Made by a program: the position numbers and the translations under genes
Origin: Syntrophales bacterium
GTDB lineage: Bacteria > Desulfobacterota > Syntrophia > Syntrophales > UBA2210
Direction: 5' to 3'
DNA: 64,000 nucleotides
Assembly: GCA_963662405.2 (NCBI GenBank)
Contig: CAXXKT010000001.1
Coordinates: 1,536,001 to 1,600,000 of the forward strand
Shown: in pieces, positions 54,753 to 60,940 of the stretch
Layout: each line of letters begins with the position of its first letter
Numbering within the stretch: position 1 is the stretch's first letter
Notes under the pieces: generated by a model
Seen by the model: only the letters and a program-made list of their open reading frames with translations
Database searches by the model: none
Told to the model about the DNA's origin: nothing

Positions 54753-55074
54753 TGTAATCGTATGTCCTTATGCCCCGGCAGTAACCATTTCCACAATCAA
54801 GAAAAACGATAGTAGCACCCTGGGCTGATATTTTCAAAGATATGATGCGGATCGGGTCATTTTCGACACAACGGCCCGAGGATCCCGTGGGGCTGATTCG
54901 GGATAGAGGAATACGAACAGGACCTGCTTCTTGACTTCCTAGGTGTTTCGTGTAAGAATCATTCGACTAAGAATATTTATACGTGGCAACGATTGAGGAA
55001 GTAATTTAAAACAGGGAAGCCGCCAGGCGGTAGATGACCGGTCCCCGGATGCCGCTGGAGGCTGCGTGACGGAG

Positions 55075-55626
55075 ATGCCTTTTCATAAAAAAGATAAATC
55101 GGAGAATTTGGAATCCCTTCCCGTATTTTTTGAACATACCGGAATCGATGAAACGTTCGACATCGGGCAAGATGGATCGGACGAAGGCTGCAGTTTCCGG
55201 ATCCTGGTTGCCCTGCGCCGGATCATGCATTTTGTCGATGCCTATTCCAAGAAACTCGCAGTTGATTACCATATAACAGGGCCACAGCTCATCTGTCTCT
55301 ATTCCATCGTGAAGGAAGGACCCCTGACCCTTTCGGATCTGGGGAGGCGAGTCAGCCTGAGCATGAGCACCGTGAACGGAATTGTCGATCGCCTTGATTA
55401 TAAGGAACTTGTCGTGCGTGAGCGGAGGGATCGGGACCGCCGCAAGGTGCTCATTTCGGCTACTGATTCCGGAAGGCAATTGGCGTCACAGGCCCCGCTC
55501 CCCCTGCAAGATCGGCTTGCCCAAGCGATTACACGATTGCCTGAGGAGGAGCAGGCTTCAATTGCCCTTTCATTTGAAAGGGTCGTGGAGATGATGGAGG
55601 TGAAGAGTTCATTTCCCCGTACCTGA
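55075..55626 (+). CDS. MarR-family regulator (EctR/CosR-like)
   Basis: ILVALRRI..SKKL..ITGPQL, STVNGIVDRL, DRRKV; upstream of proVWX. Confidence 0.85.
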   Translation: MPFHKKDKSENLESLPVFFEHTGIDETFDIGQDGSDEGCSFRILVALRRIMHFVDAYSKKLAVDYHITGPQLICLYSIVKEGPLTLSDLGRRVSLSMSTVNGIVDRLDYKELVVRERRDRDRRKVLISATDSGRQLASQAPLPLQDRLAQAITRLPEEEQASIALSFERVVEMMEVKSSFPRT

Positions 55627-55793
55627 CGGTGCGCACCTGGGTGATGGATCCGGGCACTGAAAAGGTTTACAGGCAAGGGATCACACCTGTCCGGTATACC
55701 CGTCGGCTTACTCCGAATTCCTCCCAAAATTAAAGATACGGTGTATACGAGACAAACCCGTTTGTCTCATCATCATGAGGAGATTGCAGAAAC

Positions 55794-56993
55794 ATGGCTG
55801 AGAAAATTATTGTTGAACATCTGTTCAAGATCTTTGGAGATCATCCCGAAAAGGCGCTCAAGCTCTACAAGGAGGGCCTTTCCAAGGACGATATCATGGA
55901 AAAAACCCGTCAGACGATTGGGGTCGCCGATGTCTCTTTTACGGTTAACGAAGGTGAGATCCTTGTAATAATGGGGCTTTCAGGGAGCGGAAAATCGACC
56001 CTGGTCCGCTGTATCAATCGGCTGATCGAGCCGTCGTACGGAAAGATCACCCTTGACGGGGTTGATGTTACCACCCTCTCCAGCGAAGCGCTTCGCAAGC
56101 TGCGGCAGGAGCGCTTCGGGATGGTATTTCAGCATTTTGCCCTTTTCCCCCGGCGGACCGTCATCAAAAATGTGGAATACGGACTGGAGATCCAGAAGGT
56201 TCCCCCCCCCGTTCGCGAGGAAAAGGCAATCCAGGCCTTGGAACAGGTTGGTCTCAAGGGGTGGGAAGATTCATATCCCGGCCAACTCAGCGGGGGGATG
56301 CAGCAGCGAGTGGGGCTGGCGCGGGCACTGGCGCTTGATCCGGATATCATGCTGATGGACGAGGCCTTCAGCGCCCTGGATCCCCTTATCAGGAGAGACA
56401 TGCAGGACGAACTCCTCGACCTTCAGGAACGGGTACAGAAGACGATCATCTTCATCAGTCATGATCTCGATGAGGCCCTCAAGCTGGGGGATCGGATTAT
56501 CCTCATGAAGGACGGGAAGATTGTCCAGGAAGGGACCGCGGAGGATATCCTGACGAATCCGGCTGATGAATATGTGGAAAAATTTGTTGAGGATGTGGAC
56601 CTTTCCAAGGTGATCACCGCCGAGACCGTTATGAAAAACCCGTTGGAGGTGGCCAGTTTTGCCCATGACGGCCCCAAGGCCGCCCTGTGGAAGATGAAGA
56701 AGGCGGGGATATCCAGTATCTTTGTCCAACACAAGGGAAAGGTACAGGGGATCGTCAACGCCGATGACGCCGCCCGGGCCCTCAAAAACGGTGAGAAGGA
56801 CCTGACCGGGATCCTGCGGACGGATATCGTCACTGTAACGCCCGATACACTTGCATCGGAGCTGTTCCCCCTCTTGGCGGAGTCGAGCCCGGTTGCCGTG
56901 GTGAATACCGAAGGGAAACTGAAAGGGGTCATCGTCAAGGGATCTCTGATAGCAGCGCTTTCTGAAGGAGTAAACAACAATGGAACAACTTAG
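55794..56993 (+). CDS. proV: Glycine betaine/proline ABC transporter ATPase with CBS domains
   Basis: GLSGSGKS, LSGGMQQRVGLARAL, DEAFSALDPLIR. Confidence 0.93.
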   Translation: MAEKIIVEHLFKIFGDHPEKALKLYKEGLSKDDIMEKTRQTIGVADVSFTVNEGEILVIMGLSGSGKSTLVRCINRLIEPSYGKITLDGVDVTTLSSEALRKLRQERFGMVFQHFALFPRRTVIKNVEYGLEIQKVPPPVREEKAIQALEQVGLKGWEDSYPGQLSGGMQQRVGLARALALDPDIMLMDEAFSALDPLIRRDMQDELLDLQERVQKTIIFISHDLDEALKLGDRIILMKDGKIVQEGTAEDILTNPADEYVEKFVEDVDLSKVITAETVMKNPLEVASFAHDGPKAALWKMKKAGISSIFVQHKGKVQGIVNADDAARALKNGEKDLTGILRTDIVTVTPDTLASELFPLLAESSPVAVVNTEGKLKGVIVKGSLIAALSEGVNNNGTT

Positions 56994-57825
56994 AATACCG
57001 ATCGGTAAGACAATCGAGTGGCTGATCGAGCTCTTTACCGAGCATTTCTCATTTATCACCATCGCCTTTTCCCAGGTAACGGAAAACGGGATCAAATATC
57101 TCGTAAAGGTGATGATGTTTCCCCCGCCATGGGTACTCATTGTGATCTTTACCGGACTGGCCTGGTATTTGAGCAAGAGGAGGGGGATTGCCCTCTTTAC
57201 TGTTATCGGCCTGTCCCTGATCTGGAACATGGGGTTGTGGCACCCGACGGTGAGCACGATAGCCCTGGTCCTCATCTCGACCCTGATAGCAATATTGATC
57301 GGCATGCCTTTGGGGATTGTCTCGGCGCTGAATCAGACCGCCTATCGGGTCATCATGCCGATCCTGGATGTAATGCAGACGATGCCTGCCTTTGTCTATC
57401 TCATCCCGGCCATCCCGCTCTTTGGTCTCGGTCCGGTGGGCGCGATATTTTCGACGGTCATCTTTGCCATGCCGCCAGCGATCCGGCTGACCTGTCTGGG
57501 CATCAGGCAGGTCCCCGTTGAGCTGATCGAGGCCGCAGACGCCTTTGGAAGTACCAAGGGACAGAAGCTGTTCAAGCTTCAGCTTCCCATGGCAACCCCC
57601 ACCATCATGGCCGGAATCAATCAGACCATCATGCTGGCGCTGTCCATGGTAGTGATCGCCGCGATGATTGGTGCCAAGGGCCTCGGCGGCGAGGTGTGGA
57701 AGGCGATTCAGCGGCTCCAGCCCGATCGGGGGTTTGAGGCGGGTATCGCCATCGTCATTATTGCCATGATCCTTGATCGCATCATGCAGAGGATCGGGGG
57801 CAAGGCGGAGGGGACACCGGAGTGA
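56980..57825 (+). CDS. proW: Glycine betaine ABC transporter permease
   Basis: LDVMQTMPAFVYLIP, EAA motif, ALSMVVIAAMIGA.GLG. Confidence 0.93.
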   Translation: MEQLRIPIGKTIEWLIELFTEHFSFITIAFSQVTENGIKYLVKVMMFPPPWVLIVIFTGLAWYLSKRRGIALFTVIGLSLIWNMGLWHPTVSTIALVLISTLIAILIGMPLGIVSALNQTAYRVIMPILDVMQTMPAFVYLIPAIPLFGLGPVGAIFSTVIFAMPPAIRLTCLGIRQVPVELIEAADAFGSTKGQKLFKLQLPMATPTIMAGINQTIMLALSMVVIAAMIGAKGLGGEVWKAIQRLQPDRGFEAGIAIVIIAMILDRIMQRIGGKAEGTPE

Positions 57826-57894
57826 TAGAGCGAGGGTATACACAAAAACAGAAAAAGGATGATTCGGAGAAACAAACACAAAGAGGAGGAAGGT

Positions 57895-58746
57895 ATGAAA
57901 AAGATCGGCTTAGTGGTTATTATTGTAGCACTGGCTTTGGTCCTGGGGCCCATTTCCAGTACGTATGCGGCAAAGGGAGAGGTTGAGCTGGCCTATGTTG
58001 AATGGTCATGCGCGACGGCGAGCGTGAATGTGGTGAAGGCGGTGTTGGAGGAGAAGCTGGGATACACGGTAGAGATTACCCCCGTGAGCGCGGCCGCCAT
58101 GTGGCAGGCCCTTGCCAGCGGAGATGTGGACGGGATAACGACGGCCTGGCTCCCGGTCACGCACGCCCATTACATCGCGAAGGTCAAGGACAAGGTCGTC
58201 GACCTGGGATCCAACTGTGAAGGTGCGGGGATCGGCCTGGTGGCACCCACCTATGTGACGATCGATTCCATCGGTGAGATGAATGCCGTCGCCGATAAAT
58301 TCGACGGCAAGATCATCGGTATCGATCCCGGTGCGGGGCTCATGAGTAAGACCGAAAAGGCCATCAAGGAGTACGGACTGACCAAGTTTGAGCTGATGGA
58401 GGGGACCGGGGCCATCATGACCGCCGTCTTGAAGAATAAGATAAAGAAAAAAGAATGGGTTGTTGTGACCGGATGGACTCCGCATTGGAAGTTTGCCCGG
58501 TGGGACCTGAAATATCTCAAGGATCCCAAGGGTATTTTCGGCGGGGCCGAGGAGATCAGGACGATCGTCCGCACGGGACTCGACAAGGATATGCCGGAGG
58601 TATACCGCTTCCTCGATAAATTTCACTGGAACCTGGCGGAGATCGGCCAGGTAATGGGGTGGAACGCCGACGGCGCTGATCCCTATGAATCCGCCAAACG
58701 CTGGATCAAGGAAAATCCGGACCGTGTCAATGAGTGGTTGAAATAA
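57895..58746 (+). CDS. proX: Glycine betaine ABC transporter substrate-binding protein
   Basis: Signal peptide, AWLP.TH, GIDPGAG, GWTPHW.F, LKDPK. Confidence 0.9.
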   Translation: MKKIGLVVIIVALALVLGPISSTYAAKGEVELAYVEWSCATASVNVVKAVLEEKLGYTVEITPVSAAAMWQALASGDVDGITTAWLPVTHAHYIAKVKDKVVDLGSNCEGAGIGLVAPTYVTIDSIGEMNAVADKFDGKIIGIDPGAGLMSKTEKAIKEYGLTKFELMEGTGAIMTAVLKNKIKKKEWVVVTGWTPHWKFARWDLKYLKDPKGIFGGAEEIRTIVRTGLDKDMPEVYRFLDKFHWNLAEIGQVMGWNADGADPYESAKRWIKENPDRVNEWLK

Positions 58747-58784
58747 GGCGCACGCGAAGATCGTGCGCGGCACGCTGTAACATG

Positions 58785-58817
58785 ACGGCCGCCCCGGACG
58801 GGGGGGCCGTTTTTTTT
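58785..58817 (+). terminator. Rho-independent terminator after proX (lies between convergent genes)
   Basis: ACGGCC.CCCC-loop-GGGG.GGCCGT followed by a T run. Confidence 0.8.
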
Positions 58818-58820
58818 ATG

Positions 58821-58976
58821 TTATGTGTTCCTATCGGACTTTTCATTCGGGTTCCTTTTGTCCGCCACCTGGCAGGTCTGATTCATTCAGGTGGGTATCC
58901 CCATCTTCGGGAATATATAGGACTGAAGAACAACCCAGACAGTGACAATCCCCAGAAGAATCAATATGTCGTGCAT
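58821..58976 (-). CDS. Small single-TM putative selenoprotein (51 aa if UGA is read as Sec; 29 aa otherwise)
   Basis: MHDILILLGIVTVWVVLQSYIFPKMGIPT-U-MNQTCQVADKRNPNEKSDRNT; RBS GAGGGAG; UGA at 58889-58887; SECIS-like hairpin at 58862-58876. Confidence 0.65.
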
Positions 58977-59002
58977 GCTCTCCCTCGCCACTCTTTTTCC
59001 GT

Positions 59003-59031
59003 AAGATAGTGTCCTGTTTCTTCCTTGTCAA
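59003..59031 (-). promoter_or_regulatory. Putative sigma70 promoter of the small membrane gene
   Basis: TTGACA-N17-TATCTT. Confidence 0.65.
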
Positions 59032-59173: not shown

Positions 59174-59202
59174 TTGACCTCGCCGGTTTGAGTGATTATA
59201 CT
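59174..59202 (+). promoter_or_regulatory. Putative sigma70 promoter of the CoA-disulfide reductase gene
   Basis: TTGACC-N17-TATACT. Confidence 0.6.
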
Positions 59203-59239
59203 TGAAAGAAATATTATAAAATTGGGGGGGTTTGTTCCT

Positions 59240-60940
59240 ATGGTTCATCAGAAAAAAATCATCGTAATCGGTGGTTCGGCCGCAGGTCCCAAAGCGGCCG
59301 CCAAGGCACGAAGGTTGGATTACCATGCTGATATCGTCATCCTGCAAAAGGCGCCCGATCTCTCCATGGCCTCCTGCGGATATCCGTACTATGTCGGTGG
59401 GTATTTCGACGACCGGAATATGCTTCTGTGTACACCGACGGGTGTGACACGAGATCCCCTCTATTATCTCAACGCAAAGGGGATCGAGGCGCAGACGAAC
59501 ACCGAGGTAACGGCAATCGACCGGAAGGCCAGGATCGTCTCCTGTACGAACCTGTTGACGGGAGAGAAACAACAGCTCGCGTACGACAAGCTCGTTATCG
59601 CCACGGGTGCCGTCCCCAAGATGCCGCCGGTTCCGGGGACCGATCTCGACGGGGTTACCACGCTCCAGTCAATGAGGGATGCTGATTTTCTTCGAAAGGT
59701 TCGTGACGAGGGGAAGATCAAGAAGGCCGTCGTGATCGGAGGGGGTCTGATCGGGATCGAGACCTGCGAGGCCCTCCAACTGGCAGGGATAGAAATTACG
59801 GTGGTCGAACTTCTTCCCCAGCTCCTGACCTTTCTCGACTGGGAACTCGCCAAGCTGGTTGAGAACCACGTGAGGGCCAAATCGGCGAATGTCATCACCG
59901 ATAACGGTGTTGTTCAGTTTCTCGGACAGGATGGAAAACTGAGTGGCGTGAAACTTCAAAACGGCGCCGAACTGGCCTGTGAGCTGGCCGTCATCGCCAT
60001 CGGTGTGTCGCCCAATGTGCGTCTCGCGAAGGAGGCGGGGCTGAAGATCGGTGAGACGGGTGGGATCGAGGTCAATGAATATATGCAGACCTCGGACGAG
60101 GATATCTATGCCGTGGGAGATTGTGTCGAATCGTTCAATCGCATCACGGGGAAGAAGGTCCTGGCCCCCTATGGAGATGTCGCCAATCTGCAGGGGCGTA
60201 TTGCCGGTGAAAATGCGGCGGCCGGAAACAGTGTTGTCTTCCCGGGAGTCATCCAGACGGGGATCTGCAAGGTATTCGATTACGCCGCCGGCTCGACGGG
60301 TCTCTCCGAAACGGTAGCTAAAAGGCTGGGGTACGATGATATCATCACGGCAGTCAACGCGAGCCCCGATAAACCCGGTTTCATGGAGGGACAACTCCTG
60401 GTTACCAAGCTGGTTGCCGACCGGAAGACCGGCAAGGTCCTCGGGGCGCAGTGCATGGGCCCGGGAAATGTGAGTAAACAGATCGCCCAGTGGGCAATGG
60501 CCATCCAGGGAGGTCTCACGGTTGAGGATATCGTCAATTCCGACCTGCCCTACGCGCCGCCCTTCTCTCTCGCGATAGATCATTTCATCGCGACGGCCCA
60601 CATCATGCAGAATAAGATCAAGGGGAGAATGAAGGGCATATCGGTGACGGAGGTCAAGCAGAAACTGGAAAACCATGAAAAACCCTTCATGCTGGATACG
60701 CGCGGGCCGGACGAGTATGAAGAGATGCGCCTCGGTATCGGAGAGTCCATTATCCCTCTCGGCGCCCTGCGCAGACGCCTGAACGAACTCCCCGAAGATA
60801 AGGATCAGGAGATCATCTGTTTCTGCAAGATATCTCTCAGGGGGTACGAGGCGGCGCTCGTTCTCGAGGCGAACGGATGGAAGAACGTCAAGGTAATGGA
60901 AGGCGGTATCATGGCGTGGCCCTACGCGCGTGATAAATAA
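59240..60940 (+). CDS. CoA-disulfide/persulfide reductase with C-terminal rhodanese domain (Cdr/Npsr-like)
   Basis: GGSAAG, SMASCGYPY redox Cys, GGGLIGIE, YAVGD, YAPPFS; rhodanese CFCKISLRG..EGG..AW. Confidence 0.9.
   Translation: MVHQKKIIVIGGSAAGPKAAAKARRLDYHADIVILQKAPDLSMASCGYPYYVGGYFDDRNMLLCTPTGVTRDPLYYLNAKGIEAQTNTEVTAIDRKARIVSCTNLLTGEKQQLAYDKLVIATGAVPKMPPVPGTDLDGVTTLQSMRDADFLRKVRDEGKIKKAVVIGGGLIGIETCEALQLAGIEITVVELLPQLLTFLDWELAKLVENHVRAKSANVITDNGVVQFLGQDGKLSGVKLQNGAELACELAVIAIGVSPNVRLAKEAGLKIGETGGIEVNEYMQTSDEDIYAVGDCVESFNRITGKKVLAPYGDVANLQGRIAGENAAAGNSVVFPGVIQTGICKVFDYAAGSTGLSETVAKRLGYDDIITAVNASPDKPGFMEGQLLVTKLVADRKTGKVLGAQCMGPGNVSKQIAQWAMAIQGGLTVEDIVNSDLPYAPPFSLAIDHFIATAHIMQNKIKGRMKGISVTEVKQKLENHEKPFMLDTRGPDEYEEMRLGIGESIIPLGALRRRLNELPEDKDQEIICFCKISLRGYEAALVLEANGWKNVKVMEGGIMAWPYARDK

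Follow-up and report, generated by a model that had tools for sequence, protein, structure and literature searches.

In SECIS elements of the E. coli fdhF type, the upper stem contains a bulged U. The eukaryotic membrane selenoproteins SELENOK and SELENOS have a single-pass anchor and a disordered cytosolic Sec tail, with the Sec residue near the C-terminus and the SECIS in the 3'-UTR. For bacterial SECIS hairpins (bSECIS), the legend of Figure 2 in a 2026 review gives a loop of 3–9 nt with G in the two opening positions, a stem of at least 4 bp, a spacing of 16–37 nt and an MFE of −7.5 or lower (PMC13188914). Table 1 of that review includes short selenoproteins hidden by truncation at the UGA, namely KCU-star (NF033934), UXX-star (NF041114 and NF041211) and LULAxC TsoA (NF045695), and TsoA is noted there for a U..C motif before which databases cut the protein (PMC13188914). 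Further resources are deep-Sep (PMC12013277) and BSepDB (PMC13326102), the latter described as searching known families only. In sulfur handling, E. coli YgaP is described as a membrane sulfurtransferase (PMC4730233), and ArsR-family SqrR/BigR and CsoR-family CstR are described as persulfide sensors (PMC9774590).

The locus considered here lies on the − strand of a window of 64,000 nucleotides (the whole stretch of DNA analysed) from a Syntrophales bacterium. Translation and family comparison define a coding sequence of 51 residues from an ATG at 58976 to a TAA at 58823–58821, with an in-frame TGA as codon 30 (58887–58889, −), assigned to Sec30. The read-through product has a hydrophobic N-terminus, the stretch PKMGIPT-U-MNQT-C and then a charged tail; the family motif LP[KR]xG[IV]xT-U-x4-C follows the single TM helix. 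The second residue of the U-x4-C motif, Cys35, recognized by its conservation, is encoded by TGC (58872–58874, −) within the stem of a bSECIS-type hairpin (58862–58876, −; CCUGCC-AGGU-GGCGG, with a 5 bp stem and the AGGU loop at 58870–58867), which is supported by folding and conservation. From the comparisons below, the segment 58976–58821 (−) is almost certainly a genuine SelB-decoded selenoprotein gene. The selenoprotein reading was proposed in an earlier note made from this DNA alone, and it is borne out by TGA or Cys at codon 30, an open downstream frame, a conserved Cys, a covarying hairpin and the Sec machinery of the host.

Upstream of the gene are a Shine-Dalgarno-like GAGGGAG (58980–58986, −), identified by sequence, and a putative sigma-70-like promoter, TTGACA-N17-TATCTT (59003–59031, −), which matches the consensus at 10 of 12 positions. 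These two elements, together with the ATG, TGA, TAA and hairpin, were found at the positions given in the earlier note. Of its claim that the gene has its own promoter, the consensus match stands but nothing beyond it: promoter-like sites number 3 per 2 kb versus 1.1 ± 1.0 in shuffles, which by itself is weak evidence, and many relatives are located inside operons. No RNA set is named among the sequencing runs listed as carrying this DNA. The note also has the gene end a few nt before a hairpin shared with proX. A strong hairpin (58784–58811, or to 58817 with its U-run; −23.9 kcal/mol) does lie 10 nt past the TAA, but its U-run is on the + strand and it scores as the proX terminator. The terminator-like hairpin scored for the − strand is a second one (58748–58768, −); the first may also end the − strand transcript. 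The convergent proX-like gene (57859–58746, +) encodes, according to domain matches, a glycine-betaine/choline ABC substrate-binding protein, which forms a singleton cluster and is not a conserved neighbour. It closes an ordinary stretch of the window (55066–58746) containing a MarR-family regulator and then a proV/proW/proX-like glycine-betaine ABC transporter operon. On the other side, a divergent gene (59192–60940, +; probable start ATG 59240) encodes a CoA-disulfide-reductase-like flavoprotein with a C-terminal rhodanese domain (PF07992, PF02852 and PF00581; TIGR03385 below cut-off).

Compared with SelB-decoded bSECIS genes, this gene is alike in its in-frame UGA, G-containing loop, spacing of 16 nt, Cys homologues and host Sec machinery; it is unlike them in lacking an NCBIfam or Pfam match and in that the Sec form is far commoner than the Cys form in the genomes sampled. 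It shares with the star selenoproteins and TsoA a short length and concealment by truncation at the UGA, but has other motifs and, again, no NCBIfam match. Thioredoxin-fold UxxC/CxxU oxidoreductases are unlike it, since here 51 residues form one helix and a disordered tail, and the spacing is of four residues. The likeness to SELENOK and SELENOS is an analogy in the way of working and no sequence relation is claimed; in the present protein, Sec would lie at the membrane interface. The YgaP-like TM family (PF11127, formerly DUF2892) also comprises small membrane proteins in sulfur-handling clusters, some of which end in a G-I-x-T-C stretch, but these have two helices rather than one; homology is not supported: there was no Pfam hit, and profile comparison (hhalign) aligned only 7 columns with a probability of 11–12%.

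The earlier note assigned the protein to no known family, and we likewise found no assignment in NCBIfam, Pfam, PHROGs, PDB sequences or the selenoprotein catalogue. No score exceeded the cut-off in NCBIfam and Pfam (best E-values 0.002–0.3, to unrelated models), 24 Sec forms and 20 further members were without an NCBIfam match, PHROGs gave no match, and PDB sequences gave nothing below E 0.4. A word-indexed protein search also returned no match, with a query too short for this to bear on rarity. In the ESM Atlas, the Cys homologue P0008 retrieved one cluster set named only "hypothetical protein", and members carry that name or none in their source databases. No entry in the 119-family Table 1 of the 2026 review fits the name, the size or the combination of U-x4-C with a single TM helix, the comparison being by name and motif rather than by sequence (PMC13188914). 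A description of the family was not found in the published literature covered, which includes few subscription papers. Sequence comparison thus confirms a real, very small, widespread and uncatalogued selenoprotein family, set apart from the catalogue by name and motif.

Queried with this one protein, 39 of 61 related genomes gave a match, and the matches listed carry an in-frame TGA except for one weak row with TAG (E 0.057), which was treated as a non-member. Codon 30 is TGA in all 59 loci extracted from the phylum, whose true ends are TGA in 24, TAA in 23 and TAG in 11, one being cut off. The 150 phylum-search matches listed all contain a TGA; 45 further matches fall outside this set. To guard against bias, we also scanned GTDB with a pattern that ended in TR at codon 30, so that any TRN codon could match there (TAA, TAG, TGY and TGG as well as TGA), and that left out C35; it demanded W14 and K/R24, which excludes many Cys forms. 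Of at least 120 loci, 80 were listed and scored for membership; among these, 78 score as members, all 78 with TGA, and the two non-members (scores 9.5 and 11) have TGG and TGC. A comparison of homologues at this codon, proposed in the earlier note, gives TGA or Cys, and neither TAA nor TAG among true matches.

The frame past the TGA is open for at least 14 codons in 136/136 loci; the +1 and +2 control frames shut within 14 codons in 77/136 and 59/136 loci, respectively, and after ordinary TGA stops the frame is shorter than 14 codons in 37/95. Insertions between U and C comprise whole codons. A profile search of protein representatives (E 0.001) gave 1409 matches; in the best 150 of these, position 30 is Cys in 69, the protein end in about 46 (44 plus 2 unparsed) and Trp in 28, with Arg in 3, Gly in 2 and Ser in 1. 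The Trp, Gly, Arg and Ser residues are probably TGA under other genetic codes or single-base errors. In DNA, Cys forms occur as TGC or TGT at 80 metagenome loci (72 distinct; the search pattern required C35) and in 2 genomes. Cys homologues of the family are real, and gene finders truncate or overlook the gene.

These data bear on one alternative, that the TGA is an ordinary stop ending a 29-residue membrane peptide, with an unrelated hairpin RNA behind it or with TGA-ATG opening a second tiny ORF. Forms of 29 residues are indeed common in databases, as the count of protein ends at position 30 illustrates, the TGA is directly followed by ATG in 38/59 loci, and the hairpin of the window is by itself unremarkable. 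However, an ordinary stop would have to be TGA in every one of the listed GTDB members, with TAA or TAG in 0/78, in a family whose true ends use all three codons. The TGC and TGT homologues read through position 30 and keep Met31 in 90% of cases as well, the insertions between U and C preserve the frame, and the identity of codon 30 tracks the Sec machinery. This alternative is strongly disfavoured, and we give it hardly any credence.

In the window, the AGGU loop begins 16 nt past the UGA and the hairpin has a free energy of −7.6 kcal/mol in context. With AGGU, 5 bp, 16 nt and −7.6, it lies within the bSECIS constraints that our own script, used in place of bSECISearch, took from the Figure 2 legend (PMC13188914). 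In this one sequence its stability does not exceed that of shuffles (z = 0.08), and its significance comes from conservation across the family rather than from single-sequence stability. A hairpin of −5 kcal/mol or lower is present in 121/152 TGA forms (46/58, 62/78 among the GTDB matches listed, and 13/16 in three sets that share a few genomes and include non-independent kin), but in only 12/72 distinct Cys forms of similar G+C and 5/95 ordinary TGA stops.

Covariation was examined in 55 aligned hairpins. The C-G pair at the third position of the Cys codon is replaced by U-A in 12 of them, a level reached in 0/500 shuffles and higher than in all slid controls, in a test favoured by the fact that the structure was drawn from the same 55 sequences. 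In distant members, the stem sequence is entirely different, yet the hairpin position and the G-containing loop are kept. One detail of the earlier description was not upheld, namely an optional bulged U as in the E. coli fdhF SECIS: the U is better paired (−6.4 versus −4.5 kcal/mol), and across the 55 homologues it forms U-A in 28 and U-G in 18 and is unpaired in 9. Rfam gave no match above chance; its two chance-level matches fell on the terminator.

A search of the source genome for selA, selB, selC and selD, which the earlier note had recommended, found all four (selA, selB, a Sec-type selD and tRNA-Sec). In the assembly, selD is broken by one extra G in a homopolymer (G000:C3, about 552577; L040:1942). 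Contigs from two runs on this sample, which may be the source of the DNA, do not have the extra base, and selD is intact in 5/5 genomes of the same genus; we therefore regard the break as an assembly error, a real break being ruled out by the same-sample contigs. Other genes of this assembly may carry similar errors.

Within the phylum, selA is present in 379/401 genomes, so its co-occurrence with the gene is uninformative there. The gene is carried by 8 of the 22 genomes without selA (two deduced from absence in a listing), and selB is present in 7 of those 8. From the 78 genomes of GTDB matches among those listed, 41 were picked for non-deltaproteobacterial labels and tested for selA, two of them turning out to belong to the phylum of the source genome; selA was found in 39/41, and selB in one of the two without it. 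In each of two sets, a single TGA-form genome scored for neither selA nor selB at the thresholds applied (G437, which is 85% complete, and G468).

A further sample comprised 251 planctomycete genomes, from the phylum of a Pirellulaceae match. Sec use is common here too (selA in 187), and the family occurs in at least 24 of the 251 genomes, with 25 candidates scored per genome; one match was dropped as weak (E 8.7e-4, within an 861-residue frame). Of 21 TGA-form genomes (3 of them called from the stop column of the search rather than by our own parsing), 20 have selA and 1 has selB only. Both Cys-form genomes (TGC and TGT, single-contig matches) lack selA and selB (Fisher p = 0.012).

The family is large and widespread in anaerobic bacteria. 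A profile search of the phylum matched 183/401 of its genomes at E ≤ 0.01, about six of them weakly, which corresponds to ~45%. Beyond deltaproteobacterial groups, the taxon labels include Planctomycetota, Acidobacteriota, Myxococcota, Nitrospirota, Chloroflexota, Armatimonadota and KSB1, and type strains of Geomobilimonas, Pelotalea and Geobacter are among the carriers in the GTDB scan. A second copy with the same TGA and Cys is found in the source genome (G000:C1:2475316-2475477, +), directly upstream of a ygbA-family gene. About 140–155 nt upstream of this copy lies a perfect inverted repeat, GATTGT-N6-ACAATC, a possible Crp/Fnr-type site. Three IMG/VR contigs (L389, L390 and L391) also hold TGA-form members and may be host DNA flanking proviruses.

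The protein is predicted to be an uncleaved single-helix anchor in an N-out/C-in orientation with a disordered charged tail. AlphaFold2, run with a 51-row alignment, places a helix at residues 2–25 (58902–58973, −; hydrophobic core ~4–22), with a pLDDT of ~90 for residues 1–20 and a low-confidence tail, in line with hydropathy. In 127 Sec forms, the N-side carries on average 0.46 K/R and 0.81 D/E, and the C-side, for which the window of counting is longer, 4.3 K/R and 2.1 D/E. This charge bias favours the N-out/C-in topology, which would put U30 at the cytoplasmic surface. A cleaved signal peptide is unlikely: the position that would be −1 holds A in just 54/127 Sec forms and R in 42/69 Cys forms, and acidic residues outweigh basic ones on the N-side.

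W14, P23, G26, T29, U30 and C35 are invariant in a 24-row alignment. Of 133 distinct TGA forms, 83% have Cys35, as do 68/69 Cys30 proteins, the latter count being favoured by profile scoring, which prefers Cys30 matches that keep C35. Retention of C35 in the Cys forms, where a SECIS is unneeded, argues for selection on the protein residue rather than for a codon fixed only by pairing in the SECIS stem. The U-x4-C motif, which the earlier note had described, is thus real but not universal: among the GTDB matches listed, 19/78 TGA forms have no Cys 4–7 residues after U. These are mostly from Acidobacteriota, Myxococcota and Nitrospirota and have a Pro-rich stretch instead. Because these forms lose the nearby Cys, we take U30 to be the central residue, with C35 as a partner that some members do without. 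The Cys-less subfamily includes L079, L087, L093, L107, L111, L113, L116, L120, L141, L143, L074, L080, L101, L130 and others, and its Nitrospirota members follow rplQ at the end of a ribosomal protein operon.

No partner gene is universal, and the neighbours recur by theme. Within its own family of bacteria, the gene is often beside those for the hybrid-cluster protein, a 4Fe-4S protein, ygbA and a Crp/Fnr regulator; in three genomes of the same genus (L002-L004), the divergent CoA-disulfide-reductase-rhodanese gene also adjoins it. In other genomes, ArsR or CsoR-type regulators or a zinc anti-sigma gene precede it, and it abuts genes for thioredoxin/TlpA, CcdA, DUF302, YgaP-type TM, MBL-rhodanese, TauE, OsmC and C-GCAxxG-C-C proteins. 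The YgaP-type TM gene is a direct neighbour in 28/72 Cys loci. The two copies in the source genome fit the theme, one facing the Cdr-rhodanese gene and the other preceding ygbA.

For counting, we used a marker set of thiol/persulfide/NO-stress genes (ArsR, CsoR-type, zinc anti-sigma/ECF pairs, thioredoxin/TlpA, CcdA, rhodanese, MBL-rhodanese, TauE, YgaP-type TM, DUF302, hybrid-cluster protein and YgbA). A marker lies within 1.5 kb in 43/78 GTDB TGA loci among the matches listed, 61/72 Cys loci, 21/59 loci of the phylum and 8/20 parsed loci of the planctomycete sample, compared with 1.4% of 5000 random windows from the source genome only. The list was picked after the neighbours had been seen, its profiles derive from these same loci, a single marker-poor genome serves as background and kin are non-independent; the enrichment is accordingly a strong hint rather than a test. 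There is no marker within 1.5 kb in 35/78 of the listed GTDB loci and 38/59 loci of the phylum, and in several lineages the gene is beside housekeeping genes (pyrF, ychF, a ribosomal protein operon).

The functions of these neighbours, in thiol/persulfide and nitrosative stress, suggest a one-site redox or sulfane-sulfur carrier at the membrane surface. Taken as a whole, the proposal of a SelB-decoded, membrane-anchored redox/sulfane-sulfur carrier for thiol/persulfide and nitrosative stress seems to us, on sequence grounds, somewhat more probable than improbable. Coding status, Sec/Cys interchange, SECIS conservation, the link to the Sec machinery and the neighbourhood bias come from comparison; topology, substrate, partners and chemistry are what we infer. 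A plausible mechanism would be that SelB, docked on the in-frame hairpin, brings in Sec-tRNA for codon 30; the uncleaved single-helix anchor would hold the reactive selenol of U30 at the cytoplasmic membrane surface, where it could take up sulfane sulfur or an oxidant. C35, where present, would resolve the U30 adduct to a selenenyl-sulfide, and thioredoxin-like proteins or the CoA-disulfide/persulfide reductase-rhodanese could re-reduce it. TlpA and CcdA act outside the membrane, and these neighbours therefore fit badly with a cytoplasmic tail. Complex prediction that paired a Cys form and the YgaP-type protein encoded beside it gave a score of 0.02.

The same observations can be read in other ways. 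The earlier note left the choice between redox and metal binding, and the neighbourhoods suggest the former, as they favour thiol/persulfide redox. A selenoprotein whose U30 and C35 act as membrane-surface ligands of an Fe-S cluster or of a soft metal (Cu, Hg, As, Zn), as a metallochaperone or sensor, would fit the potential of U/C-x4-C to ligate a metal, the extra Cys just downstream in many Cys forms, and the nearby genes for an ArsP permease with an HMA domain, a heavy-metal P-type ATPase, ZnuA, Fur/FeoB and RND efflux. The ArsR and CsoR families, to which several neighbours belong, include metal sensors too. We nevertheless hold metal binding to be unlikely, since the metal genes occur here and there and are outnumbered by the thiol/sulfur markers, HMA-type CxxC spacing is absent, and Sec would be the sole nearby ligand in the 19/78 Cys-lacking TGA forms among the GTDB matches listed. 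A further reading makes the selenoprotein part of a membrane complex that has nothing to do with sulfur or thiol stress, its neighbourhood then reflecting shared regulation only. Many copies in the phylum do stand alone or beside unrelated genes, and small single-helix proteins often serve as accessory subunits. That no single partner is conserved, while the neighbours recurring across phyla and across Sec and Cys forms share one functional theme, makes such a subunit improbable.

A regulatory role, either as a membrane-bound helper to a soluble zinc anti-sigma/ECF pair or as a selenium-gated leader coupled to the next gene, draws on the zinc anti-sigma gene, which lies within 1.5 kb, often directly upstream, in 33/72 Cys loci and in 7/78 GTDB TGA loci among the matches listed. 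In five GTDB loci (L103, L122, L123, L126 and L137; also L060 and L061), the tail overlaps a predicted ECF sigma start by 35–38 nt just past the hairpin, with the zinc anti-sigma gene next, so that selenium-dependent translational coupling is possible there; the sigma starts are mechanical predictions. Most loci, both copies of the source genome included, have no ECF pair nearby, however, and in the window translational coupling is impossible because the next gene is convergent. Selenium sensing by read-through is likewise impossible for the Cys forms, and the invariance of W14, P23, G26 and T29 in 24/24 sequences points to a working protein. We consider this role unlikely. A bolder extension of the carrier proposal would cast the protein as a minimal selenium relay for sulfane sulfur at the membrane surface, partnered by YgaP-type proteins. 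It would then rank among the most widespread bacterial selenoproteins, overlooked on account of its small size and the scarcity of Cys versions in genomes, and in the ECF-overlap lineages it would also gate a thiol-stress regulon by selenium-dependent UGA read-through; in this full form the proposal is a long shot.

The family is an unlisted and non-rare addition to the selenoproteome of bacteria, so that existing counts of selenoproteins in anaerobes would be too low. It also ties selenium to persulfide/NO stress gene clusters without a listed selenoprotein. With ~50 residues, the protein is within reach of synthesis and direct testing, and its genes provide a large natural series of bSECIS hairpins in which the sequence changes wholly while position and loop are kept.

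A separate observation concerns the YgaP-like TM genes (PF11127). Three of them, L248 (G113:C23), L254 (G093:C27) and L265 (G077:C18), have an in-frame TGA at the conserved Cys together with a hairpin, and are candidates for a second unlisted selenoprotein family; in L265, there are two TGAs two codons apart.
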